Under the pieces are notes generated by a model that was not told where the DNA came from, did not search any database, and saw only the letters and a list, made by a program, of their open reading frames with translations. Position numbers and translations under genes: made by a program. A stretch of DNA of 42,139 nucleotides from Nitrososphaerota archaeon (GTDB taxonomy: Archaea; Thermoproteota; EX4484-205; JAAOZP01), in NCBI GenBank assembly GCA_011605725.1, contig JAAOZP010000002.1, forward strand, positions 1 through 42,139, in the 5' to 3' direction. Within the stretch, counting starts at the first letter, position 1. Each line of letters starts with the position of its first letter. This document shows positions 1,906 to 38,474 of the stretch, piece by piece.

Positions 1906-3216
1906 CTACCGGCATATTGCTCCATTTATCCTTATGAAGGGAGCACCCTCAGATATTGGAAACCCTTTCTCATATCCGGGTCTCAGCGAGAAGCTTTTAC
2001 CGGCTGCGTCGATCCTCCTGATGTCTCTAAGGCTGCAGATTATTTTTAAATGCTTAACCGGAGTAGTAGCCTCCTTGTTCTTCAAAACATACGCTAGCTC
2101 CGGCTCAATTTCAATCCTTCCATCATCAAGCCTACACTCGGCTCTGACGAGGCCCTCAGCATACACCCCGTTCTGAGTATCTTGGAAAATCTCGTCTTCA
2201 CTCCAATCAGAGGGCTGAATGTAAACGTTGCTTACGCAGGGCCTCGGCTTATGAGTGATTCCACGCGCGTTCCCAGCTTCACCCCTGTTTCTCGCGGTGA
2301 GCCTAGTGTGAAGCAGGCTTACTCCTTCCTCCGTAAGCAGGTTTTTAACCCTCGCCCTCACTCCCTCGTCATCCCAATGAAAGGAGCCGTAAGCATCCTT
2401 GAGAAGAGGATTATCGACGAGCTGAAACTCATACTTTAAGCCTTTGAAAAACGTCTCTCGGTAAACATCCGCCTCCAGAAAATGAGCCACCTCGTGGGCA
2501 AGTGCTCCTGCAGCCTCAGGGTCAAGAACCACCTTGAACCTCCCAACTAAATACGGGTAGGAGAAGTGGAGGATGGTTGAGGGTTTGGCGGTAATGGAGT
2601 CTTTAACTCTCCTGACTAGTTTCTCCAGCAAACCCTCCCATGGTTGCTGCCTAATGATTTCGAAGCCTCCTCTTCCGCCTACAGTCCTGCTTGCAAACCC
2701 TTCTCCAAGATCCTTGGCGACAATATAAATCGTTAAATCCGTTAAAGGAGTATGCTCCTCCACCCTCGTTCCTTCAGACGTGATAAGGATTGAATGCTTC
2801 TGAAGATGGGAGGCAATCAGCTCTATCCTTGCAGGCGCGTTAAGCCTCGACTTAAGCTCGCTCCTGAGGCTTTTCAGGAACAGAAATACTTCTTGAGGCT
2901 GAAACTCTTCTCTCAACACGTGTTCAACCCGGCCTTGCTCCGGGCTTGTTGGAAGAAGCTCAACAGGCTGGTCGCATAGCTTAGACAGCTTTAAAGCTGA
3001 AAACGCAGCCTGCTCGACAGAAGCCTGGTCAGTCTTATCCGTGCTCGCAACGCCATAGCCGTTTGTAACCACTCGACACGCGACACGCGTCCACTCTTCT
3101 TCAAGCAAGTCTGATGAATCAGTCCTTAAAGCCACCTGAACAAGCTTATGTCTAACGATTCTTAAATCAGCATACTTAGCCGGAAGCTTCTCCAGAATTG
3201 AAGAAAGCTCCTCCAT
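1906..3216 (-). CDS. TldD/PmbA-family metalloprotease
   Basis: YADLR N-terminus, HEVAHFLEAD, DDEGV, GNARG..P..SN and GAP C-terminal motifs. Confidence 0.88.
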   Translation of the reverse strand: MEELSSILEKLPAKYADLRIVRHKLVQVALRTDSSDLLEEEWTRVACRVVTNGYGVASTDKTDQASVEQAAFSALKLSKLCDQPVELLPTSPEQGRVEHVLREEFQPQEVFLFLKSLRSELKSRLNAPARIELIASHLQKHSILITSEGTRVEEHTPLTDLTIYIVAKDLGEGFASRTVGGRGGFEIIRQQPWEGLLEKLVRRVKDSITAKPSTILHFSYPYLVGRFKVVLDPEAAGALAHEVAHFLEADVYRETFFKGLKYEFQLVDNPLLKDAYGSFHWDDEGVRARVKNLLTEEGVSLLHTRLTARNRGEAGNARGITHKPRPCVSNVYIQPSDWSEDEIFQDTQNGVYAEGLVRAECRLDDGRIEIEPELAYVLKNKEATTPVKHLKIICSLRDIRRIDAAGKSFSLRPGYEKGFPISEGAPFIRINGAICR

Positions 3217-5967: not shown

Positions 5968-7179
5968 ATGTTCGGCTTTAAAGACTTGGGTTTAGACCCC
6001 TCCCAACTAACGGAGGCAATGAGGCTGGCGTGCGATTGGCTTATAGACACAGCTCAGGTGAAGACGGAGAAACTCACGATAGAAGAAGACTCCAAGCATC
6101 ATCAACACAAGAATTGGCGTGGTGCAACCAGGGGCGAATATTCCGTAGCTAGGGGGAAGTGGGACTTCTTCTGCCCGATCTGGCATACTGGTCAAGCGGT
6201 AAAGGCATTGACGCTCGCCCATAAAATCCTTAAGGATGATCGTTTGCTGGAAGCCGCTAAGCTGGGAGCTGATTTCATCGTGAATGAAAGCATAAGGGAC
6301 AAGAGTGACCCGGATTATGGCTTGATCCTGGGTTATGAGGATTATGGTGATGGAGTTAACACGTCGGCAATAATGGAATGCCTCGATGGACTGATACACC
6401 TCAGCGAGGCCACGGGTAAAGAAGAATTGTGGGACATCGTCATAGACGCATTGAACTGGATCGCTAATAAGGCCTACATGGGAAAAGGGCTGTTACGAGA
6501 CATGTATATGCCGAGGGAGAGGACTTTTAAGGTTCCGTCGTGGGCAGGCAGCGCAGGCGGCCGTCCCCTAGGTGATGACGGGGTCTTCTTAAGGGGTTAT
6601 TACAAAACCGGCGATGAGAGGTTTCGTCAAATCTTTTTCGAGGTAGTGAATCGCCTATTACAGGATGAGTATCCCCCTGGGAATTGGATTCGCCATCCGC
6701 CATGCGATCCGGAGAGGGGCTTGATCCATCCACGACACGCATACTGGTGGGGTTATCCAATGATCATGGCCTATGAGGAGACTAAGGACGATAAGTATCT
6801 GCAATGTGCTATCAGGTCTGCCGACTGGTACGCCCATGCCCAACGGAAGGATGGAGGGATGTTCCGCGGAACATTCATAGACTTCAATACCAATAGCTTC
6901 GGCCATGCGACATCCGGTATAGCATGCGCAACGATCATGTGGATTGAGCTAACCCGTATCCTGAATGATAAACGATACGTTGAGCCGATGGGAAAGGCTT
7001 TGAAGTATTGCATGATGATGCAGTTCAGAAACCCAAGGGATCAAAACCTTAAAGGCGCAATCTTGGAGAAGGTCTTGGAACCGGATGGAACGGACAGCTC
7101 ACCCTACTACATCAGAGACCTAGGAACGATATTCTTCATTCAGGCAGCGGCGAAGGCGATAATGAGCCTGAGCGATTAG
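5968..7179 (+). CDS. Putative (alpha/alpha)6-barrel glycan-acting enzyme (six-hairpin glycosidase/epimerase-like)
   Basis: Repeated helical hairpins (DDRLLEAAKLGADF, DKYLQCAIRSADW, QRKDGG) and carbohydrate-gene context. Exact family not determined. Confidence 0.55.
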   Translation: MFGFKDLGLDPSQLTEAMRLACDWLIDTAQVKTEKLTIEEDSKHHQHKNWRGATRGEYSVARGKWDFFCPIWHTGQAVKALTLAHKILKDDRLLEAAKLGADFIVNESIRDKSDPDYGLILGYEDYGDGVNTSAIMECLDGLIHLSEATGKEELWDIVIDALNWIANKAYMGKGLLRDMYMPRERTFKVPSWAGSAGGRPLGDDGVFLRGYYKTGDERFRQIFFEVVNRLLQDEYPPGNWIRHPPCDPERGLIHPRHAYWWGYPMIMAYEETKDDKYLQCAIRSADWYAHAQRKDGGMFRGTFIDFNTNSFGHATSGIACATIMWIELTRILNDKRYVEPMGKALKYCMMMQFRNPRDQNLKGAILEKVLEPDGTDSSPYYIRDLGTIFFIQAAAKAIMSLSD

Positions 7180-7342
7180 GAGAGAATTACCTTCGTTGAG
7201 AGGATGGGCTTAAGAAAAAAGGCCTTAAGCTGAACAGTAAAACATTTAGCTAGGTTTTAAAACACATTCTTAGGATTCTTCCACTCGATTAGTTCCAATA
7301 TGGCATAAAGTATAAAAACAGAAAGTTCAGGGAGCTCGGTAT

Positions 7343-8701
7343 ATGAATGTCCCAAGGATCACTATAGTTGGAGCTGGGAGTCACTTCACAATGGGCTTAT
7401 TCGGCGACTTTCTTAGGATTGGGGACATGCAGGAAAGCGAACTCGTTTTGATGGACATCGATGAGAAAAAGTTACGCATTATGGAAAGGATCCTCAAGAG
7501 ATTTACAGAGAAAGAGAGCATAGGTGTAAAGATAGTTGCAACCGTGAACCTAAATGAAGCCTTGGACGACACAGACTTCGTGATTACAACCATACGTCAT
7601 GGCGGCCTAGAGGCCCTTAAAACCGTCATAACGATACCTCTACAATTTGGGGCGGTCCAAGTAGTAGGAGATACTGTTGGTCCGAGCGGTGTGCTTAAGG
7701 GTATGTTAGAAATCCCGGCCCTTCTATATATAGCTCAGAATGTTAAGGACATAGCTCCAAAAGCTGTCATAATGAACTTCACAAACCCGATGACGCCAGC
7801 ATGCATGGCGATCAGGAAATCTACAAGGACTTCGATCATCGGGCTCTGTCATGGCTATCATAATATTTGCGATTTAGCATCTAAACTTTTAGGATATTCG
7901 ATTGGAAAGATCAGAATTGAAGGTGCAGGAATAAATCACCTGACTTGGACAACTAATATAACGTATGATGGTGAAAGTATTTATGAGGAGTTCTTAAAAA
8001 GCCTATTTATAAGGGGTAAAGAGGAGGTCTTGAGGGAACATCCATACTTAGTCGGAAGGGAATTATATAAAGTGTTTGGCATTCCACCGACTTTAAGCGA
8101 TAGGCATACGTCAGAGTTCTTCCACTATTTATATGACTGGATTAAAAATCCGATCTATGGACCCATACTCATGGAAAGTAGTGGATACATAGACTACGAT
8201 AAGAAAACACTTAGGAAAGAAGTGGTTAAGAGAGAGGAGGAGGAAAAACAAAGAATGATACGTATGGCTGAGGGTGAGGAAAGAATTACCATACATCCCT
8301 CGGGGGAGTATGCAATAGATATAGCCTCGGCAATCATCCACAAGAAGAGGACAGAGGTCATGGCTTTAAACATAGAGAACAGAGGAGCCATAACGGGGAT
8401 AAATCCTGACTATATAGTCGAGATCCCAGCTGTAATAGATGGAAACAACATAACACCAAAAGGAAAGTTTAAACTTCCAGAAACTGTGGTGAACATTCTA
8501 AATGCACACTTAGAAAAGTTTAAGGTAATGATCGACGGAATCATAGAGAAGGATAAGAATCTCCTCGTGCGGGCTATAGCCCTAGACCCATTAACGCCTT
8601 CACCCGATAAGGCCGAGAAGATTCTAAACCACTTCATTGAAGATTCAATAATAAGAAAATATCTATCAACCTATAACTTTGACCTATCGGGTTCAATCTA
8701 G
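7343..8701 (+). CDS. GH4 NAD+/Mn2+-dependent glycosidase (alpha-galactosidase/glucosidase type)
   Basis: IVGAGS, GDTVGPSG, NFTNPM, GLCHG, GINHLTW and DRHTSEFF. Confidence 0.93.
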   Translation: MNVPRITIVGAGSHFTMGLFGDFLRIGDMQESELVLMDIDEKKLRIMERILKRFTEKESIGVKIVATVNLNEALDDTDFVITTIRHGGLEALKTVITIPLQFGAVQVVGDTVGPSGVLKGMLEIPALLYIAQNVKDIAPKAVIMNFTNPMTPACMAIRKSTRTSIIGLCHGYHNICDLASKLLGYSIGKIRIEGAGINHLTWTTNITYDGESIYEEFLKSLFIRGKEEVLREHPYLVGRELYKVFGIPPTLSDRHTSEFFHYLYDWIKNPIYGPILMESSGYIDYDKKTLRKEVVKREEEEKQRMIRMAEGEERITIHPSGEYAIDIASAIIHKKRTEVMALNIENRGAITGINPDYIVEIPAVIDGNNITPKGKFKLPETVVNILNAHLEKFKVMIDGIIEKDKNLLVRAIALDPLTPSPDKAEKILNHFIEDSIIRKYLSTYNFDLSGSI

Positions 8702-9008: not shown

Positions 9009-9917
9009 ATGAAGTGGGGTTTGGCCATGTGTTGGCTGTATGCCATAACCAAGTATCGGTATGTGCCTAGCCTTGAAGAGATTTTGCTAGCGATTGATGA
9101 TGCAAAAAGAATGGGTTTTCAGTACATGGAGTTGGAAGGTGTAGGACCTCAACTTTACGTTGTTGCGGAAAACAGGGCGATCATCAAAAAGCGATGTAAG
9201 GAAAATGGTATCGCTTTAATTGATTTCGTTCCCGTCTTACCAGATATCATGTCCACGGATTCGGAGAAAAGACGAAAGGCCTTAGAAGATTTTAGGCTAG
9301 GCTGTGAACTCGGTTCTTACTTCGAAACGGGTATGGTTCAAGTAGATACGTTCCATCTTCCCATTCACGTGGAACCGCCATACGATATCTCAAAAGAATT
9401 TCGGTATGCCTACAAAGCGCCTCAACTCCGAGTGGAACCAAATTTCGATTTTTGGGAATATTTTGATGAAGTTTTGGTATCCTCCGTTAGTGAATGCAAC
9501 GATATGGCCAAAGATCATGGTTTAAAACTTTGCATCGAACCCAGAACTTGGGAAAACATATCGGACGTTTGGGCTTTAGAACTTTTAATGAGGAAGATAG
9601 GCAGCGAAAACCTTGGTGCAGTTCTTGATGTGGCTCACTTAGCTGCCCAGAAGATGCAACCAGTTATATGTATAGAGATATTGGGTAAAAGAATCTTCTA
9701 TGTGCATGCAAGCGATAACAATTACTTAACAGAGGATCATCTTGAGATAGGAAAGGGAAGTATTGATTGGACGAGTACCCTCAAAGCTCTTCAGAAGCAC
9801 CAATACAAGGGTTACATTGGCGTCGACGTAGGTGGAAAACCTGAGCTAAAGCCAACCATCGACACCATGTATATAAACTCCAAGACCTACTTGGAAAACC
9901 TAATGAAACAAATATAG
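9009..9917 (+). CDS. Sugar-phosphate isomerase/epimerase (xylose isomerase-like TIM barrel)
   Basis: LCIEP, LDVAH, HASDN and DHLEIGKGSIDW metal motifs. Confidence 0.88.
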   Translation: MKWGLAMCWLYAITKYRYVPSLEEILLAIDDAKRMGFQYMELEGVGPQLYVVAENRAIIKKRCKENGIALIDFVPVLPDIMSTDSEKRRKALEDFRLGCELGSYFETGMVQVDTFHLPIHVEPPYDISKEFRYAYKAPQLRVEPNFDFWEYFDEVLVSSVSECNDMAKDHGLKLCIEPRTWENISDVWALELLMRKIGSENLGAVLDVAHLAAQKMQPVICIEILGKRIFYVHASDNNYLTEDHLEIGKGSIDWTSTLKALQKHQYKGYIGVDVGGKPELKPTIDTMYINSKTYLENLMKQI

Positions 9918-10085
9918 CATACCGGCCCTTAGGTTTGTCTCAATTCTAGAAGGGGAACTTTTTAAGGCTGATGTTAAAAAAGGAAGAGGAGATGCTTAAA
10001 GCCATTCCTCAAAATTCATAAACCTGGCATGCGCACTGATATGCTATAAGAGTGAGGAGGAAAGGTTTTGAAGCATGCTCTTAGG

Positions 10086-10955
10086 TCACTCGACAAATGT
10101 CTTCACTCTCAATAAATTAATTGAATGTTTGTAAAGGGCAACTCCTAAGGGGAAGAGGATTAGCGCCATCAGCATTAAAACCCCCAAATCCGTTTCAAGA
10201 TCGCTGAGCCCAAGACCCTGTAGAAGGGCTAATCTCGCCACTCTCAGCGCATATGTCTGGGGTAGTATCCGGGAAACTACCTGAATCCCTTCTGGGAGGA
10301 CCTCAAATGGAAAGTAGATCCCGCTGACCAGTCCCGTCAAAACACCGACGAGCCACCTTATCGGCTCGATACCCTTCCAAGCACCTATAATCATTATCAT
10401 GCTCGCCGAGATTAAGCCGATTCCGATGACGGCAAGCCATCCGATGCATACTCCTAGCAGGGCAACGGCGTAGTTCCCCCCGCTGATCTTCAATCCAAAA
10501 AGTAATCCCACACATAGGTAAACGAGCATCGTTATGAATTGCTCGATGTAACCGTCCACTACGAAGGCAAGTATTGGCGCTGAAAAAGGTACCCCTGAAA
10601 GCCTGACGTAATCATACATGCTCAAATGTTGCCCCATGCTCCCAACCCTCCCCCTGAGGGTGAAGAGGGTTGCAATGCGAAACGCATCTAGCGTATAAGA
10701 AAATAAACTGTTAAGCATCAGCCCTAGTATTAGGAATGAAATGAAGTCCGCTCCATATTGCTGGTAAATCGGATTCGTACCCTCAAAGCTCTTTCCAAAG
10801 AATAGCCACGTTGAAGCGCCGAGCATAAGGTTGGTTACGTGAAATGGTAACATCCACTCTATCCAATAATAGCGCATGAATAGATTAAACAGTAAGAACT
10901 TGAAGAAATTGGCTGTAAACAGAGAGATCTTCGTCCTTATGCGATCAATATTCAA
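10086..10955 (-). CDS. ABC-2 type exporter permease
   Basis: About 6 transmembrane segments and SGIYFPFEVLP...ILPQTYAL..R. Follows the ATPase after 6 nt. Confidence 0.88.
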   Translation of the reverse strand: MNIDRIRTKISLFTANFFKFLLFNLFMRYYWIEWMLPFHVTNLMLGASTWLFFGKSFEGTNPIYQQYGADFISFLILGLMLNSLFSYTLDAFRIATLFTLRGRVGSMGQHLSMYDYVRLSGVPFSAPILAFVVDGYIEQFITMLVYLCVGLLFGLKISGGNYAVALLGVCIGWLAVIGIGLISASMIMIIGAWKGIEPIRWLVGVLTGLVSGIYFPFEVLPEGIQVVSRILPQTYALRVARLALLQGLGLSDLETDLGVLMLMALILFPLGVALYKHSINLLRVKTFVE

Positions 10956-10961
10956 GCGACC

Positions 10962-12026
10962 TCACCCCAGCTTTTCGCGGACAACTCTGATGAATATATC
11001 CTCGAGCGTTGGCTTATTTACCTTTACGTGCTTTATCTCCCCGCTACCCTCAACGATTGTGGAGATCGCTTTAGGTAGAACTTTCCTCGGATCCTCAGTG
11101 TACATTACGAGTCTAATGGTTTCTTCATCAACCTTCCCTAAGTCCACAAACTTCAAGATCCCACTTAACCCTTCTAAGGACTTCACGACATCCGGCGGAC
11201 AATTGAGCACCTCGAACTCTATGGATTGTTCCTTATATATGCTCATGATGAGCTCCTCCGGTTTCCCCTGGGCGATCACCTTACCCCTATGCATCAGAAT
11301 GACCCTGTCCGCATACCTTTCAGCCTCGATGAGGTTATGCGTCGCGAATAGGATCGTCGCTTTGGCCTTCCTTACGATGTTTTCTTTCATATGAGTATAT
11401 AACTCCTGCGTAACTTCCTTTGAGATTCCGCTCATCGGCTCGTCCAGAAGGTATACAGGGGAATCCCTAAGCAACCCTATCGCTGCGGAAAGCCTAGCCA
11501 GCATCCCCGTGGAGAACGTCGCGACCCTCGTATCCGCGACATCCTCGAGCTCGGAGAGCTTCAGTGCATCATCGATTCTCTCAGGTGGAAAACCATAGAG
11601 CTTTGCTTGGATTAGGAGTATCTGCCTAGGTGTAAGCCTGGCATCCATCCATGCTCCACCCGTGAGAAGACCGGCGATATACGTGGCGTGTCTCCAGATA
11701 TCGTCTTCCTCCTTCAGGATATCGTGGCCCATTATGTAGGCAGTCCCCCTTGTCGGCTTTAGCAGGGTGGCTAGGACTCTTAGTAACGTAGTTTTCCCGG
11801 AGCCGTTTGGCCCAAGGAGGCAGACAAGTTCGCCCTGCGGGATTTTTAGGTTCACGTCATCGACTGCGACGATCTCCTCCTTTTCAACGTTCCTGTTAAA
11901 ATACCTATTGTAGAGGGATAGAAGCAAGCCTCCCGGGTTGTCATCCCTATCCATGGAAACGTGCGTACCCTTGTAATTATACCTCAGATAGGTCCTCGTC
12001 AGCCCAATAGTCTCAATCGCATACAT
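10962..12026 (-). CDS. ABC exporter ATP-binding subunit
   Basis: GPNGSGKTT, FSTGM signature, LLDEP, ATHN and C-terminal PTLEDIF. Likely start MYAIE at 12026, 1 nt after the rSAM stop. Confidence 0.93.
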   Translation of the reverse strand: MYAIETIGLTRTYLRYNYKGTHVSMDRDDNPGGLLLSLYNRYFNRNVEKEEIVAVDDVNLKIPQGELVCLLGPNGSGKTTLLRVLATLLKPTRGTAYIMGHDILKEEDDIWRHATYIAGLLTGGAWMDARLTPRQILLIQAKLYGFPPERIDDALKLSELEDVADTRVATFSTGMLARLSAAIGLLRDSPVYLLDEPMSGISKEVTQELYTHMKENIVRKAKATILFATHNLIEAERYADRVILMHRGKVIAQGKPEELIMSIYKEQSIEFEVLNCPPDVVKSLEGLSGILKFVDLGKVDEETIRLVMYTEDPRKVLPKAISTIVEGSGEIKHVKVNKPTLEDIFIRVVREKLG

Positions 12027-12027
12027 A

Positions 12028-13392
12028 TTAAACCCAGTTCCCCCAAAGTGCGTGTTCAAAGTAGAATTTATAAAACTTGCAGTACGGATCTGCACCCGTT
12101 AGCAGACCTGTTGAGAATAGAGCAAGAGCTCTGCAGCCACCTCCACAAAGATATCTCCATGGACAACCCAAACAACATTCTAGCTGATCTACACGTAACC
12201 GTCTTAGGTTTTTCAGGATCTCGCTGCCAAAGTATATTTCACGAAAACTGTTGGTCCTGATGTTCCCTGCCCTATACTCGGTCAGGTGTAGCCAGTGACA
12301 GGGATAAACAGAGCCATCAGAGTCTATACTTATAGTTACAGTTCCGAGACCACAATTCAGTTTTCTTGTAAGGTTACCAGGAACTCTATCTAGTTTTGAT
12401 TCAAAGCCAATGAGATTTTTAAATCTTAGCATTGTTTTTCTCTCATTAATGAGGTTGCTTATTAACTGGATGTAGTCTTCTGCCCTTGGCGACAGTTGAT
12501 CCTTATTTACAGAACCTCTCCCAACTGGCGCGAAGAAGGCACCACTAAATGTTTCTCTACCAGATAAACTGCAAAATAACTCAATCATCGATGGAACATC
12601 CTCTAGATTTAACTTAGTAATTGTAGGATATAGACTAAATTTGATACCGTTTTCTTTTAATAAGTTGATATTATTAATGACACGCTGAAAAACACCGTTC
12701 CCTCTAATTGCGTCGTTTATCTCCGGTTTACTTCCGTCTAAACTTATTTGCACAAAATCAATACCAATAGACCTCCATTCCTCCACAATATTTTTATCAA
12801 TAAGTGTACCATTCGTAGTCAAGTGAACATATAATCCCTTATCTTTTAGGTAGCTAAGGATCTTGTTCAAATCCCTTCTTAAAAGAGGTTCCCCACCACT
12901 TATAATCATGCGGGGACGGAATACTGTTATGATCTCGTCAATAAATTTCCTGATTTCGTCATAGCTCAGTTCATTAGATTTTTCCACTCCAGCGTTCTTA
13001 AAGCACGTTGTACACCTTAGATTACACCTATTCGTTACAAATAACCAAATTTCGCCTGGGCCTCTACTAATGGAAAAATCTTCGCGAGGCGACCTCTCTT
13101 CCTCTCCCACTTTTACCAGTAAGCCGAGAGAGAGTAATGTATCAAGCGTTTGTTTAACATCCTTCTTAACTCGCTCGAGTTCAACCTTATATTTTTCACT
13201 TAAGATCTTTGAAATATCTTCTAACGTATTTACACCATTGCAAAGACTTATTATCTCGGCTGCAGAGCGGTTAATTCTACTGCAAGAAAAAAGAGTTTCG
13301 TTTAATAATAAAAAATATTCCACCCCATTCTTTTTCAAGCAGCGGGTACCTGAACTCGGGACTACTACATCATTAGAAAGAACCTCGTTCAT
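12028..13392 (-). CDS. Radical SAM/SPASM peptide maturase with N-terminal PqqD/RRE domain
   Basis: RRE-like INRSAAEIISLCNG..TLEDI...LSEKY....V..D....L..L...GLL, then CNLRCTTC, SGGEP and SPASM CGLG..IDSDGSVYPC..CLGCPWRYLCGGGCR..DPYC. Confidence 0.94.
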   Translation of the reverse strand: MNEVLSNDVVVPSSGTRCLKKNGVEYFLLLNETLFSCSRINRSAAEIISLCNGVNTLEDISKILSEKYKVELERVKKDVKQTLDTLLSLGLLVKVGEEERSPREDFSISRGPGEIWLFVTNRCNLRCTTCFKNAGVEKSNELSYDEIRKFIDEIITVFRPRMIISGGEPLLRRDLNKILSYLKDKGLYVHLTTNGTLIDKNIVEEWRSIGIDFVQISLDGSKPEINDAIRGNGVFQRVINNINLLKENGIKFSLYPTITKLNLEDVPSMIELFCSLSGRETFSGAFFAPVGRGSVNKDQLSPRAEDYIQLISNLINERKTMLRFKNLIGFESKLDRVPGNLTRKLNCGLGTVTISIDSDGSVYPCHWLHLTEYRAGNIRTNSFREIYFGSEILKNLRRLRVDQLECCLGCPWRYLCGGGCRALALFSTGLLTGADPYCKFYKFYFEHALWGNWV

Positions 13393-13410
13393 ATATCTCT
13401 ACTACACCAG

Positions 13411-13545
13411 TTATGCTGGGCTGGTGTCATAATCTGCGTCTGCTACATACTTCAAATGTGCATGACCATGCCCTTCTGGCTCTACTGTTGATGGTAATGG
13501 GGAGTATACTTTTGGGGCTTCATAAATTTCTTCACAATTTTCCAC
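13411..13545 (-). CDS. Putative RiPP precursor peptide (44 aa; 47 or 50 aa with upstream GTG starts at 13554/13563)
   Basis: Too short to appear in the ORF track. Translation MENCEEIYEAPKVYSPLPSTVEPEGHGHAHLKYVADADYDTSPA. GGGGTGA SD 5 nt before the GTG, YxxPxV RRE-type leader motif, and the stop is 18 nt upstream of the maturase start. Confidence 0.82.
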   Translation of the reverse strand: MENCEEIYEAPKVYSPLPSTVEPEGHGHAHLKYVADADYDTSPA

Positions 13546-13566
13546 TTCGCTCACCCCTTTCACCTC

Positions 13567-13618
13567 AACAGAGTTTTCTGTTAAGAGGGTTTTTAATTTT
13601 TTTTACAATGGTAAAAAT
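13567..13618 (-). promoter_or_regulatory. Putative promoter region of the RiPP operon with two short inverted repeats
   Basis: A-rich AAAAATTAAAAA TATA-like element on the minus strand about 30 nt above the first GTG. Inverted repeats TTTTAC-AATG-GTAAAA (13601-13616) and AACAGA-GTTT-TCTGTT (13567-13582). Confidence 0.4.
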
Positions 13619-13819
13619 GGCATTTTCTGCTAGAGGAGGTATAGCATTTGTTTGCGCAAACCAGCGGGGCCCACAATGGTCAAATACAGATTATGATCCA
13701 TGAAAACAGGAAGATAAGCTCCAGTTGGGTATGTGAATGCTTCCTGTAGAAAGGGTCAAGTAGCTGTGGTTATGCAAAGGCTTCCTAGGTCATTATGAAC
13801 GTATATACTTTTATACCCA

Positions 13820-15361
13820 CTAGGAGACGTATTTATTTATATATGCTCTATGCTTCTTGAAGGACCTCCGTAGGTCCCTACTAACCATGTTGTGGACTTC
13901 TTGAAGCTCTTTGTACTTCTCCACGTTCAACGGGTTGGGGCTAACACGCGTTTGTTCATCCAGCTTGACGAATCGATCACAGATTTCCCGGATGCTCATC
14001 TTCTCCCCGGAATAGTTCATGTAGCACCACATTGCTTGGAGGGCGGCGCCATATGCTGCACCCTCATCTATCTCTATGCAGACAACCTCTGTGTTAAATA
14101 TGTCTGCGGCTATCTGTCTCCAAACCCTATTTTTCGAACCTCCGCCGGTGAGCCTTATTTCACCGGGCTTTATTCCAAGCTCCCTCATCCTGTTCAACCC
14201 GTAGTTCATCCCGAGTGTAACGCCCTCCATAGCTGCCCTAGTAATGCTCTGCCTGTTGAAAGTCCTGCTGTTCAAACCATAATAGACGCCCGTACCCTCA
14301 GGTACATTCGGCGTCCTCTCTCCCTCGAAGTAGGGGATCAAGAGTAGCCCATTAGAGCCGGGAGGAGCCTCCTCAACAGCCCTTGTTAAGTCGTCATGCG
14401 TCATGTTGAAGAGCTCCCTAACATACTCCGTAGCCACGGTAACATTCATCGTGCACAGGAGCGGTAGCCAAGCATTCGTCGAGTCGCAGAAGGCAGCTAT
14501 CTCCCCCCTCGAGTCGACAACCGGCTTCTCAGAGTAAGCATAAATCGTACCAGATGTTCCGAAGCTTGCGGTCACAATGCCCTTCCTAACGTTACCCGTC
14601 CCTATGGCGCCCATCATGTTATCCCCACCACCAGCGCTGACTACGACATCCTCCCTGAAGCCGAACTCGCCAGCAACCTCCCTCCTGATTGTTCCAACAG
14701 GCTTATCAGATCCCTGCAATGGAGGCAGCTTGTCCCGGAGCCCAGGGTCAATAGCATCTATGACCTTCCTACACCAGACTCTTCTCCTAACGTCCATCAT
14801 CGCTGTTCCGGAGGCGTCGCCATACTCCATAACCATGTTTCCCGTTAAATAATAGTTCAGATAGTCATGGGGCAGGAGGACGTGGCGCAGCCTAGCATAG
14901 TTTTGAGGCTCGTTCCTTTTAAGCCAAAGTATCTTGGGGGCAGTGTAGCCGGGAAGTACCAGGTTCCCTATGAGCCTCAAAACATTCTTTACTCCGCCGA
15001 GCCTCCTAGTCAAGTATTCGCACTCTTTAGCTGTACTCGTGTCGTTCCAAAGCTTTGCAGGCCTTATGACCATGCCCTTCTCGTCCAGGGGGACGAAGCC
15101 ATGCTGCTGGCCTGAAACCCCTATAGCCCTCACGCCCCTAGGGTCTACCCCCGTCTTGGAAAAAACCTCTTTAACGGTTTTATGGAAAGCATTAATCCAA
15201 ACCTGAGGATCCTGCTCCTTATGGCCCGGAGGAAGATTCTCTATCAAACCATAGTTTTCAACGGCCTTACCAACCACGGTGCCGGTCTCCCCATGTACTA
15301 GAAGGGTCTTCATGCTCTGGGTTCCCAGATCCACACCTATGAAATAGATGTTTTCCTCCAA
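13820..15361 (-). CDS. xylB: Xylulokinase (FGGY family)
   Basis: IGVDLGTQS, SGQQHG, LWND, TAPKILW, GGGDN, GERTP and GGGSKN. TTG start. Confidence 0.92.
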   Translation of the reverse strand: MEENIYFIGVDLGTQSMKTLLVHGETGTVVGKAVENYGLIENLPPGHKEQDPQVWINAFHKTVKEVFSKTGVDPRGVRAIGVSGQQHGFVPLDEKGMVIRPAKLWNDTSTAKECEYLTRRLGGVKNVLRLIGNLVLPGYTAPKILWLKRNEPQNYARLRHVLLPHDYLNYYLTGNMVMEYGDASGTAMMDVRRRVWCRKVIDAIDPGLRDKLPPLQGSDKPVGTIRREVAGEFGFREDVVVSAGGGDNMMGAIGTGNVRKGIVTASFGTSGTIYAYSEKPVVDSRGEIAAFCDSTNAWLPLLCTMNVTVATEYVRELFNMTHDDLTRAVEEAPPGSNGLLLIPYFEGERTPNVPEGTGVYYGLNSRTFNRQSITRAAMEGVTLGMNYGLNRMRELGIKPGEIRLTGGGSKNRVWRQIAADIFNTEVVCIEIDEGAAYGAALQAMWCYMNYSGEKMSIREICDRFVKLDEQTRVSPNPLNVEKYKELQEVHNMVSRDLRRSFKKHRAYINKYVS

Positions 15362-15679: not shown

Positions 15680-16633
15680 ATGCCCATAGTGGATCTTCCA
15701 CTGGAGGAGCTTAAGGTTTACAAGCCTCCGCTTACAAGGAGAAGCGATTTCCAAAGCTTCTGGAACCACAACAGGAAGCTCTCTGAGGAGCAGCCTTTAA
15801 ACGCTGTCTTTAAGAGGCTCGAATATCCTGTGAAAAGGCTTGAAGCATTCTTGGTTTCTTTCGACGGCTTTACAGATAAGACTCCAATAGTCTCCTGGTT
15901 TCTAAAGCCCGTTGGAGAAGGTCCTTTCCCGGCGCTTCTAGTTCTCCACGGCTACGGTGGAAACAGGGGCACTGTCTCAGACTATTTGAACTGGATTCTC
16001 CAGGGCGTTGCCGTTATGGCGATAGATGTCAGGGGGCAGTTCGGCGATACACCAGACTTCGCGAAATACCCTTCTGGAAGCATTACAGGACACATGACTA
16101 AAGGCATTCTTGACAAGGAAACCTATTACTACAGGTATGTTTACATGGATTGTCTTCGCGGACTCAGAGTTCTGTGCGAGAGGGAGGATGTTGACGAGGA
16201 AAGGATTGGTGTGACGGGCGCCAGCCAGGGAGGAGGTTTAACACTAATAGTCTCAGCCATGGGAGAGGTTTCCCTATCTCTGCCTGAAATACCTTTTCTA
16301 TGCCATTTCGAAAGGGCTGTTGAAGTTGCGGCTTCAGACCCATACTTAGAGATTTCTCGCTATCTCAAGACGCATCCTGAAAGTGTTGAGAAGGTTTTCG
16401 AAACACTTTCCTATTTCGACGCGATGAACTTCGCTCCAGACATTAAGTGTCCAGTCCTCATGTCAGTCGGCCTCCTTGATACTGTATGTCCGCCTTCAAC
16501 CATTTTCGCAACTTTCAACCACACAGCTTCAGGAATAAAGGAGCTTGCTGTTTACCCTGGAATGGGCCATGAATCTCACAATGTGCATAGGGAGAAAAAG
16601 ATACAGTGGGTCGACAAGTACCTGTTGCGGTAA
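15680..16633 (+). CDS. Acetyl xylan esterase / cephalosporin-C deacetylase (CE7)
   Basis: DLPLEEL..Y.P, HGY, DVRGQ, GASQGGG, LSYFD, DTVCPPST and GHE. Confidence 0.94.
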   Translation: MPIVDLPLEELKVYKPPLTRRSDFQSFWNHNRKLSEEQPLNAVFKRLEYPVKRLEAFLVSFDGFTDKTPIVSWFLKPVGEGPFPALLVLHGYGGNRGTVSDYLNWILQGVAVMAIDVRGQFGDTPDFAKYPSGSITGHMTKGILDKETYYYRYVYMDCLRGLRVLCEREDVDEERIGVTGASQGGGLTLIVSAMGEVSLSLPEIPFLCHFERAVEVAASDPYLEISRYLKTHPESVEKVFETLSYFDAMNFAPDIKCPVLMSVGLLDTVCPPSTIFATFNHTASGIKELAVYPGMGHESHNVHREKKIQWVDKYLLR

Positions 16634-16713
16634 ACATTTGAAACCATCTTTGCACCACCGGGTTTACCATGCTAAATGTTTAAAAGAAACCTGTTGCACA
16701 TCATACCGGAATG

Positions 16714-16995
16714 ATGTCGAAGGTTCCTATTGATCTAGAAAAGTTAAGTAGGAAGGATGTTGACAAGGAGGTTCTGCGTGTAGCTATCATTGCTGAACTA
16801 GACGCTGTAAACCTTTACGAGCAGCTTGCCCAAGCTGCTGGCAGCAGAGACGTTAAGAAAGTCCTGCTGGACATAGCTAAGGAGGAGAAGACTCACGTGG
16901 GAGAATTCCAAGCCCTCCTGCTGAAAATAGACGGGGAGCAGGCTCTGGAGCTTGAGAAGGGCAGGAAGGAAGTTGAAGAAATAACTGGAAAATAA
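16714..16995 (+). CDS. Small ferritin-like protein (EncFtn/rubrerythrin-like half bundle)
   Basis: IIAELDAVNLYEQ and EEKTHVGEF di-iron motifs, followed by D.EQ..EL..G..EV. Confidence 0.85.
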   Translation: MSKVPIDLEKLSRKDVDKEVLRVAIIAELDAVNLYEQLAQAAGSRDVKKVLLDIAKEEKTHVGEFQALLLKIDGEQALELEKGRKEVEEITGK

Positions 16996-17057
16996 ATCAT
17001 TCCTCTCCTTATCTAAACGAAGAGCGTTCCGCACCCTGCTGCCGCTGAGTCGAAGCC

Positions 17058-18092
17058 TTATCTTGACCAGCGTTCCTCAGGAGGAGGTAACACTGGGAAT
17101 GGTGCATGCGGCTCAGTCTGATACCAGTATGCGACTGAAGCAATATCGTCAGTAAGAGGCTGGAATTTACGGTCAGGATACCATCCTAAGGCTTGAATCG
17201 TGACCCTTAGGTCTTTCTTAAACCGTATTGGGTCAAGGATGTGCCACCTGTATAGTGTGTGCCTAGGGACCTCACCCGGCTCCCTCCTGTAGAGAGGATA
17301 GCCTAGGAAAGCTGTTGAAAAAGTCTCGCCGCCGAAACACCATGCTCCCCCGAAATAGTCTTCAGTCCCTGTTCCGCAGATAGTTGGATACTCAGTGTCC
17401 CCGTCTATGAAGAACTTTATTTCCCCCTCTCCCCACCAGCCGTTAGACAGCTGCGTCCACGCTAACACGGTTCCAACATAGTGTCCGCTTCCCTTAACAC
17501 CGTCTAGAATAGTATGCTGCGGGTTCTGCCTTGTTGTCATGGAGCGCCTCCACTGGGCGTGGAAATACGCCATTCTATCCTTAACCTCTTCAAGCGAGTA
17601 GGTTATTTGATAGTAGAATCCCCCTATGTCCTCGATCCACTGGTTTTCAACAGTTATTACAGCACTCCTCTTGAACGGCATTGGAAAATAACAGTTGAAC
17701 CCTCCGGATGGGTTTACTGCAATAGGTATCGAGTTAACATTATACCTCAACCCGTGGCAGTTTGCGAAGAAGTCTCCAAGAGGAACTTCAACCGACGGCT
17801 TCTCCTCACAATCCCAGTAGAAGCGTAGAACACAGTTTCTATACGCCTTAGCATCCACAGTCAGCCAGATGTGGCGGATGAACCCGCTTCCCCTTATGTC
17901 TGCAAGCTTGACGGTCTCCCCTTTCGGCAGTGTTATGCAGGGCTTAACCTTCCATCCTTTTCCAAGCCTTGACGCTGGGCTTCTCTCATCCGGAGCCTCC
18001 ATTGCGCCCCTGCCTTTTTCACCAGTAGGATTCTCAGCTGAGATGGATCGTGTCTCTGCGTCGCTCAACTCTGGAAGAGAGTGTAGGAACAT
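17058..18092 (-). CDS. GH172 (DUF2961) alpha-D-arabino/fructofuranosidase-like glycosidase
   Basis: SISAENPTGEKG, PSVEVPLGDFF, WWGEGE, GTGTEDYFGGAW, YRWHILDPIRF and SVAYWYQ. Confidence 0.93.
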   Translation of the reverse strand: MFLHSLPELSDAETRSISAENPTGEKGRGAMEAPDERSPASRLGKGWKVKPCITLPKGETVKLADIRGSGFIRHIWLTVDAKAYRNCVLRFYWDCEEKPSVEVPLGDFFANCHGLRYNVNSIPIAVNPSGGFNCYFPMPFKRSAVITVENQWIEDIGGFYYQITYSLEEVKDRMAYFHAQWRRSMTTRQNPQHTILDGVKGSGHYVGTVLAWTQLSNGWWGEGEIKFFIDGDTEYPTICGTGTEDYFGGAWCFGGETFSTAFLGYPLYRREPGEVPRHTLYRWHILDPIRFKKDLRVTIQALGWYPDRKFQPLTDDIASVAYWYQTEPHAPFPVLPPPEERWSR

Positions 18093-27312: not shown

Positions 27313-29331
27313 ATGTCAAAAGAAACGCTTAAAAGTGGGTTAACCGTAAGAGCAATCGCTGTTGCAACAATCATAGCCCTTCTATACACAGTCCCGTTAA
27401 TCTGGTGGATGCGATATCAGTCAGCAAGATTCGCGGTTAGAAGGCTTTCTCCTATGGCTATGCACATGATGTTTCTAACTTTCATAGTTGGTATAACGGC
27501 GGTTATTACTAGAAAGTCACTCAATAAAGCATTCTCTAGTCAAGAGTTAACTGTGATATACTCTATCCTGGCTGCTACCCTTCCAATTCCTTGGGCGCTT
27601 GGAATAGTTGAGTACTCTTGGCTCCTAACACCGTTGAGAGTAGGGGATTATCCAGGTGTTTGGCAGGCTGTGCCGGACTTCTGGTTACCTAAGTCGCTCG
27701 GGATAGACGTCATCTGGACAGGAGGAATCGGGCTTTCAGAATTCATCCCAATAGCAATCCTCTGGTCTACCGTGACCATTGTTCTCTATGTTTTCAGCTA
27801 CTCGATAGGTCTTCTTCTGAGGAAACCTTTTCTAGAGGTTGAAAAATTGCCCTATCCAATGTTGACGCCAGCCTCCTTTGTTATTGAGAAAGCAACTACT
27901 GCTGAAGAGGGAGGGTTACCTGCAATACTTAAGGCTAAAATGTTCTGGATCGCTTTCCTAATCGGTTGGCTGGTTAACTTCTATTACAGTCCGACTGGAG
28001 GTGGTGGACAGGGCTCCGGCTTGGAGCTTCTCCTAGGCTACCCCTCTCCAGAACCTTACATGGCCTACACTTACCTAAGTGGCAAGCTTCCATCCCCATT
28101 CACGAACATCGTAATGGCATGGGATTTCGACGCCCTTGGAATAGGACTGTACTTACTGTTCCCCCTGGATGTCCTGTTAACAGGAATAATATTCCACGTG
28201 ATTTGCTATATAATATGGCCGATAATCCAGGTATCAACAGGGCTGGTTAAACCTCAGCCCGGTGGTGGAGAATGGGGCGCATACGGCATCGTTAACTCAA
28301 GCGACGTCTTCGTGCCTGAGTCGTTCCTTGACGTGGGTGCATACATCGGTATAGGTCTCTTGGCTCTATGGGTTATTAGGAAACCTTTGATAGAGTCAGT
28401 TAGACACGCTATCAAAGGGACGGGAGATGAGAGGCCATTCTCATATAGAACCATATGGATGCTAATCGTAGTTACGGCAATAATCCTAACCGGCTTCTTA
28501 ACAGCGAGTGGGGCCGACATATTGTCATCTATAGTTACTGTGGCTCTTCTCGCCTTCGCCATACTCATTCTCGCAAGAGTAAGAGGGGAGGTGTGGCCAG
28601 GATATTCTAATGCTTGGTGCTGTATTCAAGTGCAGAACTCCAGCACAAATCCTCTGAATCCTGTTGCAGTTGTCCAGGTGGTTTCTGGTGCTAAAAGTGG
28701 CGTGCCCGTGAGTACAGATGTGGCGAGGTCGATCTACGTTACCAGTGGTTTCCTGAATGTCACCAGTTACTACGGACTGTGGACACCGGCAATCGCCTCC
28801 TTGGAGTCATTGAAGCTTGCTGAAGAAACAGGAACCAACCCTAGGGATGTCGTGATTGTTGCAGTACCTGTAGCTATCGTAGTGACCTTCCTAACATTCC
28901 TATTCCTATCGATGAACGTTACGCAGTTTGGGGCAAGGAGATTCCTCTCTGACTGGTGGACATCCGGCCAGTTTGACCGCATAGGCAATCAGGATGCAGC
29001 TAATGCTCTTAGAAGCGGGATAACCCTGCCGACGATTGGGAGAACAGTCTGGACTATTCTCGGTGCAGTAGTTGCAATCGGATTAGGCTTGGCTAGAATC
29101 ACGATATCAGGTTTCCCACTGAACCCGTTAGGAATGATAATGTTCTCAAACAGCTTCTATGGATTCGGCTACGGTCTTGTTGCATACATAATCAAGTTCC
29201 TAGTGTTGAAGATAGCCGGTGCTAAAGCGTGGGAGGAGAAGGGTCTGCCTTTAGCGCTGGGTTTATTCCTCGGCGGGTACATAGGCTTCTACCCGACCAG
29301 GGCGCTAGTATGCTTCCTACTGGGGAGGTGA
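27313..29331 (+). CDS. Polytopic membrane protein, OPT-superfamily-like paralogue A
   Basis: About 16 hydrophobic segments, KSGLTVRA N-terminus, SQEL..IY, EKLPYP and PLNPLG. Confidence 0.65.
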   Translation: MSKETLKSGLTVRAIAVATIIALLYTVPLIWWMRYQSARFAVRRLSPMAMHMMFLTFIVGITAVITRKSLNKAFSSQELTVIYSILAATLPIPWALGIVEYSWLLTPLRVGDYPGVWQAVPDFWLPKSLGIDVIWTGGIGLSEFIPIAILWSTVTIVLYVFSYSIGLLLRKPFLEVEKLPYPMLTPASFVIEKATTAEEGGLPAILKAKMFWIAFLIGWLVNFYYSPTGGGGQGSGLELLLGYPSPEPYMAYTYLSGKLPSPFTNIVMAWDFDALGIGLYLLFPLDVLLTGIIFHVICYIIWPIIQVSTGLVKPQPGGGEWGAYGIVNSSDVFVPESFLDVGAYIGIGLLALWVIRKPLIESVRHAIKGTGDERPFSYRTIWMLIVVTAIILTGFLTASGADILSSIVTVALLAFAILILARVRGEVWPGYSNAWCCIQVQNSSTNPLNPVAVVQVVSGAKSGVPVSTDVARSIYVTSGFLNVTSYYGLWTPAIASLESLKLAEETGTNPRDVVIVAVPVAIVVTFLTFLFLSMNVTQFGARRFLSDWWTSGQFDRIGNQDAANALRSGITLPTIGRTVWTILGAVVAIGLGLARITISGFPLNPLGMIMFSNSFYGFGYGLVAYIIKFLVLKIAGAKAWEEKGLPLALGLFLGGYIGFYPTRALVCFLLGR

Positions 29332-29377
29332 CTTCCCCTCGCTCAAAAGGTTTTTTCCCCTATTTATTTTTAGTTTA

Positions 29378-32300
29378 ATGGCATTATCTTTAACTATTGG
29401 TAACACGGTTTTTAGCTTAACGTCATCCAATCAGGCTGAAAGTATTGTTGAGGGAGCAGTTTCCACTGGTGCGGGGTTGTCCAGTATAAATTTTAGGAAT
29501 ATAATTAACCATTTAGAATATTTGTCCTCGCTAAACAGATACACGGGTTATCCTGGATGTGAAGAAGCATCGAAATACATTTTTAATTACTTAAGTAAAA
29601 CATTAGGGCTGAAAACCTGGATTGAAGAGTACGAGCTCCCAATACCTTTCGACTACGGTTCGAGTATAACCGTTTACCTTGACGGGGTAATGAAGATCGT
29701 TGAAGCATATGCTTTGCTTCCAAACAACGTGCAGACTTCCTACGGCAACTATACTGGTTATTTAGTATACTGCGGGTTTGGAACAATAGATGATCTTAAC
29801 AATGTTAAGGGAGAGATAAACGGTAGTATCGCTCTTATGGAGTTCAACTCGGGATACAACTGGTTAAACGTTATGCGACTAGGGGCTAAAGCTGTTGTCT
29901 TCATCGCTCCGAACGATACTATGCGCAGCGAAAGCGATCGAAAGAATCTGGATATTCCTCTGAAATTCCCAAGGGTTTATGTTTCGAGGGATGACGGAGC
30001 TTACCTTAGAAATCTAGCTGTTTCTGGGAAAAGTGTAACTACAACCGTTAGAGTGGGCATGAAATGGATCCATGCGAAGGCGAAGAACATTATTGCGGTG
30101 CTAAACGGGACGGATCCGAAGGAGATGGAGAACACTATCGCCTTAATGGCTTACTATGACTCAGCATCCATAGTTCCCGCTCTCTCACCAGGAGCAGAGG
30201 AAGCTGTTGGAATCGCTTCTCTCTTGGAACTGGCTCGCCTGCTGAAGGAGAATCCTCCGAGGAGGCCAGTCTGGTTCATAGCTTTCTCAGGGCATACTCA
30301 GGCAATGGCTGGGGGAAGAGACTTCATATGGCATAGTGAAGAGTTGGTTGAAAGTGGAGACGGGGCTTCTAAACCGTTCGTATGGCACTATGACCACATA
30401 GGGACTACTGAAAACAAGAATCTAGCTCCCTATGCGATAAAAATGGCTATAAGCTTAGATTTCTCGTCTGATTCCGACGCGATAGCGGTGGCTGGTTACG
30501 GGCGTTTCTACGGTTTGGGCGGTCCCTGGTATGATTGGTATAGTTATGATAAGGATCTTACAAGATTCCTGTTCACAGGGGGACGATATGGGGAGTATAG
30601 TCCTTCAGAGAACATCTATCGCTTGAGAAAAGACGTTTTGCCGGCGAATGCGTCGCGCACGGCTTACAGGGCATTCGGACTGTGGGCGAGTCAACTAGAT
30701 ATGAACCAGTATCTCCCAGGGGCATTAACCTACGAGGCGGAAATATTCGCTAGAACAGGAATATGGGGAATCTGCTTCACCACTGCTCTCTCCATTAAGC
30801 TGACTTACAACACTCCGTTTAACTTGTTCGAGAGAATAAAGTTTGAAAATGTTGTTCCACAGGTCGAGTTCTCGTTTGCACTGATAAATGCAATATTGAA
30901 TGACACGGAGTGGTTTGATTTTAGCAAAGTAACAATCAGCGGGGGTCAAAAAGCAGGTGCTTTCTTCACTCATAAGCATAAGGATGATGCTGGAGTTGGC
31001 TACGTTGTTGTCCACGGTCGCGTTGGCTTATGGAATATAACAAGGAACTGGTACGAGTACAACTGGACGAGTATAGCTGGAGAGGAATGTGATATTCTGC
31101 TCTCTATACGTATAACCAACAGGGCTGACGTGTATGGTCATGAATGGATTCAATTCGCGAATATGGATGACGGTACGTTTGTTTCAAAGGGCATGTTGCC
31201 GAGCCTAGGCTGGGCAGCTCCTCTTGCTGAGTATGAGATTCTACCGTATCTCATAAACAGGACCACAGGAGATATTGAGTATGCTCCCGACATGGGTGTG
31301 TATGGCGGGTATCTTTGGCCACATGGCTACCGGTTCCTCACTTTCGACGATCCCCTTATTGATGGAAGTGGAGATAAAATTGTAAACCTCAGTATGTTCA
31401 AGGCAAGTACAATAGCGCTTCACGACCTGTTTGACCCAAGAACTCTCCTAACTCCAAGCATGGGGTCTTATATTAGGATCCTTGATACGAGTGATGTGGA
31501 ATTAACCCAGTTTAGCTACATAATGTCCGCTTCACCGTCGTTTGAAAGCGCAGAGAACATTGTGCTGGGAGACCCCACTTCAGGTTATGAAGCTGTAATT
31601 TTTGTTCCTCCTGATAGCAGAATAAAAATACTTTTCATGACTGAGCAGACCGCTTTAGGTATATTAACCAATAACGGGGATGGGATTAAGGTTTCAGAGA
31701 AATATTTGAATATTATTCCAACCCCGTTGCACTTTACACGTGATCTTATGAGTTTGGTTGAAGCAAGAGTAAGCGGTTTGACTGCAGTACAGCTTGCCGG
31801 AGGGGGGAAAGGTGCTTACATTAATGAACTTTATAGCCAGAGCATTAAGGAGTTAGAGTCGGCCCGCGAGTTAAAAGGGGAGAACAAGCATGGCGACTAT
31901 TATCTCGCCCTTTTAAAGTCTTGGTACTATATTCAGCTCGCCTATTCTGAAACTAAAAGCATTCTAATGGATTCATCAGTCACCGCAGTCTTCTTTTTTA
32001 TTCTAATCGTGCCGTTTTCTTTTCTCATCGAAAGGCTGGTTTTCTCTGCTAAAGGGAATAGAAGGGTCTTAACCATAATCGTGGTTTTCGTAATCCTAAT
32101 GATAATGCTGTTTCTAATCCATCCCGGTTTCAGAGTAACTCCTTTCTCGATGGTTTCCGCTCTCGGCTTCATATGTTTATCCTTAGTGGCTCTAATTCTC
32201 GTTTTCATGTCGAACGAGATTGCTGGAGTACTTAGGGAATTGAGAAGGAGACTCATAGGCGTCTCTTTCGTCCAGGCTGACACTCTCGGATCCATAATGG

Positions 32301-38364: not shown

Positions 38365-38474
38365 TCTCAGTGCCTTTTCAAATGCTTGACGAATTAAAAA
38401 CGTTTGCGGACTCTCACTATCTTGATGCGAGCGTAAAACTTTTACGCGGGTCTCGCAAGAGAGGAAGAAGAGTT

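Follow-up and report, generated by a model that had tools for sequence, protein, structure and literature searches.

What do the four tightly packed genes at positions 10086-13563 of an archaeal contig make, and is the shortest of them a gene at all? The window analyzed here, 42,139 nt of contig JAAOZP010000002.1 from a Nitrososphaerota archaeon, belongs to a Brockarchaeota-type member of the GTDB Thermoproteota and carries four co-oriented minus-strand open reading frames (ORFs) at this place. A first-pass annotation had read them as an operon for a peptide made on the ribosome and then modified post-translationally (RiPP), comprising a precursor, a maturase that joins a RiPP recognition element (RRE) to radical S-adenosylmethionine (rSAM) and SPASM domains, an ATP-binding cassette (ABC) ATPase, and a permease. 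All coordinates were confirmed, as were the intergenic gaps of 18 nt (13411 to 13392), 1 nt (12028 to 12026), and 6 nt (10962 to 10955). Here, we conclude that this is probably a genuine and previously undescribed rSAM RiPP operon using RRE-guided radical modification of the precursor core, a judgment that applies to the system and not to any specific bond. Within the curated families and the literature searched, the precursor family and its HxHxH...DxDxD motif appear to be undescribed.

Translation of the precursor more likely begins at GTG 13554, giving 47 aa plus stop (13411..13554, minus strand; ORF listed as 13411-13563), than at GTG 13545, the start chosen in the first pass. A near-identical strain has ATG at the same codon (L100:2839-2979), the precursor of a locus whose maturase is 77% identical (L013) opens there with M-S-E-V, and GAGGTGA (13560..13566, minus strand), which reads as a Shine-Dalgarno-like element with a putative role in initiation, lies 5 nt upstream. 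Maturase homologs of 35 to 89% identity were collected and their flanks translated in six frames. In agreement with the expectation that close homologs would be preceded by a short ORF with conserved leader and core, a homolog of the precursor adjoined every family maturase with enough flanking sequence, down to 35% enzyme identity. It was found directly upstream in the same or near-identical population (L018, L099, and L100), in L013, in L009, which equals L019 (59% maturase identity), in L015 (52%), in the WOR-3 bacterium L016 (47%), in the Acidobacteriota L020, L021, and L101 (38 to 39%), and in L179 (38%) and L186 (35%); in L017 (45%) it was directly downstream instead. Counted as independent loci, at least 12 from Thermoproteota, WOR-3, and Acidobacteriota had a homologous short ORF beside the maturase. 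The precursor is thus conserved next to homologous maturases, as a RiPP-type operon predicts, yet the label of an archaeal RiPP class had to be given up, since homologous systems occur in Acidobacteriota and WOR-3 bacteria.

Applied to the 33,155 six-frame segments from all loci, the pattern [HC].H.H.{3,10}D.D.D matched 15, every one of them beside a family maturase. Searching 1.84 billion proteins with a precursor profile returned eight matches, seven of which were true representatives, and yielded two further members (P0131 and P0132), each adjoining a PqqD-rSAM-SPASM gene. The eighth, P0130, was rejected: this 1138-aa ankyrin-repeat protein met the core profile in seven repeats; its repeat G-H-x-E-V-V-K-A-L-I-D-A-D-A-D-V resembles the core, and the core motif alone can thus match ankyrin repeats. 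At the codon level, comparison of 21 core codons between the window and L009 (same genus) found 8 identical, 10 with synonymous changes, and 3 with non-synonymous changes. With 10 of the 13 changed codons synonymous, the core is clearly under purifying selection, i.e., selection on the encoded peptide. This comparison was limited to the core because an indel shifts the leader register in the whole-length comparison of the window with L013, which was discarded. Two further loci were considered and left out of the family. An Anaerolineae metagenome-assembled genome (L187, 34% maturase identity) had no matching short ORF on the strand of the maturase gene within about 700 nt upstream and 450 nt downstream, and the family boundary was accordingly placed near 35% maturase identity. 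L102, the same as L180 (37%), encodes, ahead of its maturase, a 155-aa NHLP-like protein without DxDxD and was assigned to a neighboring family, probably a sister RiPP family. This protein (L102:2196-2663) bears a weak likeness to NHLP leaders (E 6e-4) and has a Cys-rich C terminus beginning L-H-A-H-I-E-V, and a second radical SAM gene lies upstream at the same locus.

Alignment of 14 distinct precursors, with positions given in window numbering, placed the conserved residues in two blocks. P14, H31, H33, D39, D41, and D43 were invariant in all 14, and H29 was present in 13, being replaced by Cys in the WOR-3 member; the first-pass annotation had not singled out these three His and three Asp. 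The window leader spans residues 1 to 27 or thereabouts and includes the box Y11-E-A-P14-K-V-Y17, for which the family form is Y-x-x-P-[KDE]-[VA]-[FYL], so that the Y-x-x-P motif noted earlier is present with its Pro invariant. The core (approximately residues 28 to 47) consists of H29-x-H31-x-H33, the spacer L-K-Y-V-A, and D39-x-D41-x-D43; across the family, HxHxH and DxDxD are separated by a spacer of 4 to 8 residues. Archaeal-type cores scarcely differ from one another (G-H-x-H-x-H-[LIW]-K-Y-V-A-D-x-D-x-D), the acidobacterial form is H-x-H-x-H-x-C-...-D-x-D-T-D-T with one core Cys, and C termini end in T-S-P-A/T, E-V-A, or D-T-A-E. The window core has no Cys, the sole Cys of the precursor, C7, being in the leader and not conserved. 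Of the His and Tyr residues first proposed for crosslinking, the His residues are conserved, whereas in other branches Y36 gives way to Pro or Trp or is missing, and Y42 is replaced by T, S, I, or A, varying even among archaeal-branch precursors. Tyr participation and the YVA and YDT triplets consequently carry no family-wide signal, and a His/Tyr cyclophane is one chemical option only. The i/i+2/i+4 spacing is fixed for both His and Asp while only the spacer length varies, from which we infer a β-hairpin in which a His strand would face an Asp strand, the His side chains on one face lying across from those of Asp.

The maturase (454 aa; 12028..13392, minus strand) matched the Pfam domains PqqD (3.5e-11), Radical_SAM (2.1e-31), and SPASM (2.2e-9). 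A PqqD-type RRE occupies approximately residues 1 to 95. The radical SAM motif C123-x3-C127-x2-C130 was invariant in 13 homologs, as was a seven-Cys SPASM pattern (C347, C365, C407, C410, C416, C420, and C438) predicted to hold two auxiliary 4Fe-4S clusters. An AlphaFold2 model (predicted local distance difference test score, pLDDT, of 86) consisted of an N-terminal winged-helix RRE, a barrel, and a SPASM domain, and its nearest solved structures by Foldseek were CteB, SkfB, SuiB, anSME, TigE, PqqE, and ChlB at 15 to 22% identity, in agreement with a PDB sequence search. The modeled fold firmly puts the enzyme among RiPP maturases, and does not reveal its chemistry. The sequence hallmarks of an RRE-rSAM-SPASM RiPP system are found at the locus, namely CxxxCxxC, the seven-Cys SPASM pattern, and a PqqD-like RRE together with an adjacent conserved precursor, with leader binding supported by modeling.

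To which RiPP family the enzyme might belong was assessed against curated models, and no NCBIfam model reached its cut-off. The highest scores were those of AhbD (183 bits, cut-off 500), NirJ2 (175, cut-off 500), MftC (TIGR03962; 164.7, cut-off 265), and WgkB (160, cut-off 650), with lower scores for StsB (152.8, cut-off 625), PqqE (TIGR02109; 127.8, cut-off 381), PapB (125.6, cut-off 340), AlbA (96.5, cut-off 850), HxsB (TIGR03978; 57.6, cut-off 370), and the XyeB triceptide model (TIGR04496; 19.6, cut-off 450). Motifs and scores together bore out the earlier exclusion of sactipeptides, ranthipeptides, PqqA, and mycofactocin. The window core lacks Cys and the StsB, PapB, and AlbA scores fall short; for pyrroloquinoline quinone (PQQ; PqqA/PqqE), the core also lacks a conserved Glu or Tyr; and for mycofactocin (MftA/MftC), the C termini are not G-V-Y. 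A HxsABCD-type system acting on His-Xaa-Ser repeats was rejected on the HxsB score and on the lack of an NCBIfam match for any precursor. The XyeB type of triceptide maturase was likewise rejected, the HaaB, HtkB, and YhhB clusters lying outside that comparison. Aromatic-X-X triplets, the mark of triceptide substrates, are present (H-G-H, H-A-H, and H-L-K), and are a weak criterion. The claim of a new family thus held against both the curated models and the literature searched, where a search for His-rich rSAM precursors also returned no matching family.

Modeling of the RRE-leader complex, proposed in the first pass as a check, supported leader docking on the RRE. The maturase-precursor complex reached an interaction prediction score from aligned errors (ipSAE) of 0.89 in each of three runs, compared with 0.00 for the best of three controls, and 58 of 80 solved complexes, against 2 of 110 mismatched pairs, attained the mark used for this score. 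Runs shared at least 66% of contacts, with a partner pLDDT of at least 56. In the model, leader residues 9 to 24, a segment that takes in the invariant Pro together with K-V-Y, are placed on enzyme residues 35 to 44 (RRE strand β3) and on helices 64 to 89, while core residues 29 to 30, 34 to 39, and 42 to 43 contact residues of the barrel and SPASM domain.

Comparison with studied systems places the operon in a familiar setting with an unfamiliar substrate. CteB, the SCIFF thioether maturase (PDB 5WGG), was the best Foldseek match to the maturase (1.2e-20) and a top PDB sequence match (7e-19), and CteB, SuiB, and TigE share its three-part layout, in which a winged-helix RRE precedes the radical SAM barrel and a SPASM domain for two auxiliary clusters. 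The modeled leader forms a β-strand on RRE β3, as in the solved CteB- and SuiB-type complexes. These enzymes differ from the window maturase in sharing only 15 to 22% identity and in acting on unrelated precursors, and CteB needs Cys donors whereas the archaeal cores have none. PqqE/PqqA and MftC/MftA likewise pair a PqqD-type RRE and rSAM-SPASM enzyme with the C-terminal region of a short peptide; there, however, E-x-x-x-Y or G-V-Y motifs and further cofactor-pathway genes are found, while the window has neither, its enzyme scores below the cut-offs, and an exporter is present. PapB and other ranthipeptide systems, and CrpC, have a transporter or similar cassettes, as here, but use Cys thiol donors in contrast to the His positions of the present family. 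CrpC of Methanococcus voltae is a biochemically studied RRE-rSAM-SPASM enzyme forming Cys thioethers (PMC13692751), and was the one archaeal rSAM-SPASM peptide or protein maturase studied biochemically that our literature search retrieved. Closest in substrate are HtkB, HaaB, and YhhB, radical SAM enzymes described by the Morinaka group that act on His-rich cores including H-x-K (PMC11499958); the window core has H-L-K and overlapping H-x-H. These enzymes are proteobacterial, and the DxDxD block has no counterpart in that work, a separation based on description only. Given that His cyclophanes made by HaaB, YhhB, and HtkB are known in bacteria (PMC11499958), cyclophane formation would not by itself constitute a new class, as had been suggested for this locus.

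How the operon might work can be outlined as follows. The 47-aa precursor would be translated from GTG 13554, and its leader box Y-E-A-P-K-V-Y is predicted to dock as an extra β-strand on β3 of the PqqD/RRE domain, which would feed the C-terminal HxHxH-LKYVA-DxDxD core into the barrel of the radical SAM domain. Reductive cleavage of S-adenosylmethionine would then generate a 5'-deoxyadenosyl radical that abstracts a hydrogen from a core side chain, and the two SPASM auxiliary clusters would accept an electron as one or more intramolecular crosslinks form. Finally, the DrrAB-like ABC-2 pump may export the product or protect the producer from it. As to the bonds, we tentatively favor one to three crosslinks from an invariant His imidazole to a side-chain carbon, with Asp Cβ as the most attractive acceptor, forming a ladder of H33-D39, H31-D41, and H29-D43; we regard this as possible rather than probable. 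Such a ladder would explain why the register is fixed while spacer length is tolerated, and would account for all the invariant residues and for the exchange of His for Cys. It would combine two precedents, abstraction at Asp Cβ, the position at which PapB acts and forms its crosslinks, and addition of a Cβ radical to His C2, as by HaaB, YhhB, and HtkB. The latter three link His C2 to a Cβ (PMC11499958). Taken furthest, the proposal describes a Cys-free class of rSAM RiPP in which three His imidazoles are joined to the Cβ of three Asp on the facing strand, a His-for-Cys analog of the sactipeptide and ranthipeptide hairpin, exported by hot-spring archaea as a heat-stable, metal-binding peptide; that full picture is speculative and rather doubtful. 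The His/Asp face of such a product would be suited to binding a metal ion.

Several points weigh against this account. The literature search found no precedent for a radical SAM crosslink from His to Asp. Metal ions are classically bound by His, Cys, and Asp, and conservation of these residues could reflect the function of the product and not crosslink sites. Only 14 distinct precursors from related lineages were available, so invariance here stands for few independent samples. The complex score may in part reflect likeness to the solved SuiB-SuiA, CteB-CteA, and ChlB-ChlA complexes, and the modeling job carried ligands and custom alignments, unlike the calibration set. No peptidase gene was found inside the archaeal cassette.

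The same conserved residues can be read in other ways. Local three-residue cyclophanes on the aromatic-X-X triplets, linking His C2 to the Cβ of the third residue (H33-L-K35, H29-G-H31, and H31-A-H33) and leaving Asp another role, would make the product a His triceptide. All archaeal-type cores, and that of L017 as well, keep H-x-K (H-L-K, H-W-K, H-I-K, and H-F-K), HtkB links His C2 to Lys Cβ on H-T-K with relatives acting on multi-Hxx precursors (PMC11499958), the RRE-rSAM-SPASM architecture is the same, and ChlB is among the structural matches. Across the family, however, the third residue after H33 is K, C, or L, and local triplets offer no explanation for a DxDxD block that is invariant and fixed in register. 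The best curated matches are of AhbD, NirJ, MftC, and WgkB types; the failure of the XyeB model is weak evidence, since triceptide synthases spread over many clusters. On balance, we consider the triceptide reading possible but doubtful. Somewhat less likely still, in our view, is that His3 (or Cys-His2) and Asp3 are ligands, either in a mature product serving as metallophore or metal buffer or, while catalysis is under way, at an Fe-S cluster of the enzyme, with the radical step, such as epimerization or a spacer crosslink, taking place elsewhere. That His, Cys, and Asp are the sole invariant core residues is consistent with this, as are the replacement of the first His by Cys in the WOR-3 member, the extended H-x-H-x-H-x-C ladder of acidobacterial cores, and the exporter found in archaeal loci and the acidobacterial branch. 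An ArsR-type HTH_5 regulator directly upstream of one precursor (L185) and a CusB-like protein (weak match) near L179 point the same way, but these metal-related neighbors are single cases, no uptake system is present in the cassette, and the spacer, on which the modification would then fall, is conserved less well across branches than any other part. Metal binding is, moreover, compatible with either a His-Asp ladder or His-X-X cyclophanes and does not exclude them.

Two readings depart further from a modified and exported His-Asp peptide. In the first, the peptide would give rise to a redox cofactor, like PQQ or mycofactocin, for intracellular use by neighboring sugar-metabolizing enzymes, a reading that draws on the MftC and PqqE scores, which are among the better curated matches, and on the position of the operon amid carbohydrate genes. 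Both scores are nevertheless below their cut-offs, neither a conserved E-x-x-x-Y nor a C-terminal G-V-Y was found, PqqB/C- or MftD/E/F-type partners are missing and a conserved exporter stands in their place, the flanking genes differ from locus to locus, and only two of 17 genomes of the genus have the system; a cofactor is therefore very improbable. The short ORF might also be a chance open frame beside an enzyme that modifies another substrate, inasmuch as the precursors had no Pfam or NCBIfam match and relatives are named only "hypothetical protein" in the database. Cross-phylum conservation beside the maturase, the pattern of synonymous change, the specificity of the regular expression, and the passing complex model leave this explanation with a negligible probability.

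What the operon would add to knowledge depends on which of these readings holds. Its design, an RRE-rSAM-SPASM RiPP with an ABC transporter, is familiar, and generic genome-mining rules would probably flag it; the peptide chemistry is probably new, whereas novelty of the bond formed is a claim we would make only with considerable doubt. Were His and Asp the crosslink partners, the result would be a new bond type in radical SAM peptide chemistry and thermostable enzymes for constrained, possibly metal-binding peptides, and a Cys-free His-Asp class would give TACK archaea their first radical SAM RiPP of defined structure. A His triceptide would extend that class to archaea and add a new enzyme lineage, a useful but incremental gain. 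Archaea hold many unstudied RiPP clusters, whose products are almost all unknown (PMC12144867). The present system offers a compact test case, with a 47-aa substrate, one enzyme, six invariant candidate residues, and no core Cys. Rare and accessible to experiment, it is a candidate through which uncultured archaea might reveal new radical SAM peptide chemistry.

Beyond the precursor and maturase, the cassette includes a DrrA-like ABC transporter ATPase (354 aa from ATG 12026; 10962..12026, minus strand) and an ABC-2-type permease (289 aa; 10086..10955, minus strand). The ATPase matched Pfam ABC_tran (2.8e-24) and DrrA1-3_C, and scored 200 bits against NCBIfam drrA, under the cut-off of 312. 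The permease had no Pfam match and only weak NCBIfam matches to DrrB, DrrC, and RbbA-permease models; a protein of 263 to 289 aa was found at the same position in L014, L015, L018, and L019. The five archaeal loci with sufficient sequence (the window, L018, L019, L014, and L015) all kept the order precursor-maturase-ATPase-permease, while the genes flanking the cassette were different at each locus. In the acidobacterial branch, a fused ABC_membrane-ABC_tran exporter replaces the two-part transporter. At the WOR-3 locus (L016:1-2357), genes for an M16 (PqqF-like) peptidase and a sigma-70 factor precede that of the precursor, and a small DUF4190 membrane protein follows the maturase in place of the transporter. 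On the A/T-rich Logan contig carrying P0132 (L185:754-1489), where the ArsR-type regulator was seen, the precursor has an extra acidic C-terminal tail and the maturase gene is seemingly split into pieces.

The hosts are Brockarchaeota-type and other Thermoproteota, WOR-3, and Acidobacteriota; Brockarchaeota have been described from sediments of hot springs and hydrothermal systems (PMC8065059). The precursor family is very rare, with about nine precursor clusters among 5.8 billion proteins. The second genome of the genus to carry the system is G007 (Candidatus Brockarchaeota archaeon DRTY-6.bins.80, contig JAFNIX010000004.1), and within the phylum the system was found in two of 401 sampled genomes. 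Consistent with this patchiness, G+C content was 0.39 to 0.41 at 12001-14000 (maturase and precursor), compared with 0.46 to 0.50 over the ATPase/permease stretch and 0.42 to 0.53 over most of the window, and together these features suggest that the system may have spread horizontally. A comparison with empty sites gave no insertion boundaries, the flanking triosephosphate isomerase (TIM)-barrel gene having no ortholog (E<=1e-60) in the 16 other genomes of the genus.

Upstream of the precursor, an A/T-rich stretch of the form A8-TT-A5 (13590..13606, minus strand), approximately 40 to 50 nt 5' of the start codon, is a candidate archaeal TATA box and TFB recognition element (TATA/BRE), and A/T-rich boxes were present at comparable distances in L019, L015, L182, and L185. 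Rfam returned no family match over 9900-13900. A PmbA/TldD-type metallopeptidase gene (1906-3216, minus strand; Pfam PmbA_TldD_3rd, 4.8e-26) lies approximately 7 kb from the operon, with adjacent ORFs at 1295-1915 and 664-1257; TldD/TldE proteases process the leaders of some RiPPs, e.g., microcin B17. At 27313-35898 on the plus strand, a gene for a 672-aa DUF6785/DUF6784 membrane protein comes first, then an ORF of 1533 aa (29378-33979) and one of 640 aa without a Pfam match. The operon itself is flanked on both sides by sugar-metabolism genes encoding an FGGY kinase, a xylose-isomerase-like TIM barrel, and a GH4 enzyme (Pfam). Genes for carbohydrate use at 5968-8701, 15680-18092, and 35932-42138 include GH88-like, GH4, acetyl-xylan esterase, DUF2961, GH38 α-mannosidase, and GH42-like members along with the FGGY kinase, a neighborhood consistent with the plant-polymer degradation reported for Brockarchaeota (PMC8065059).

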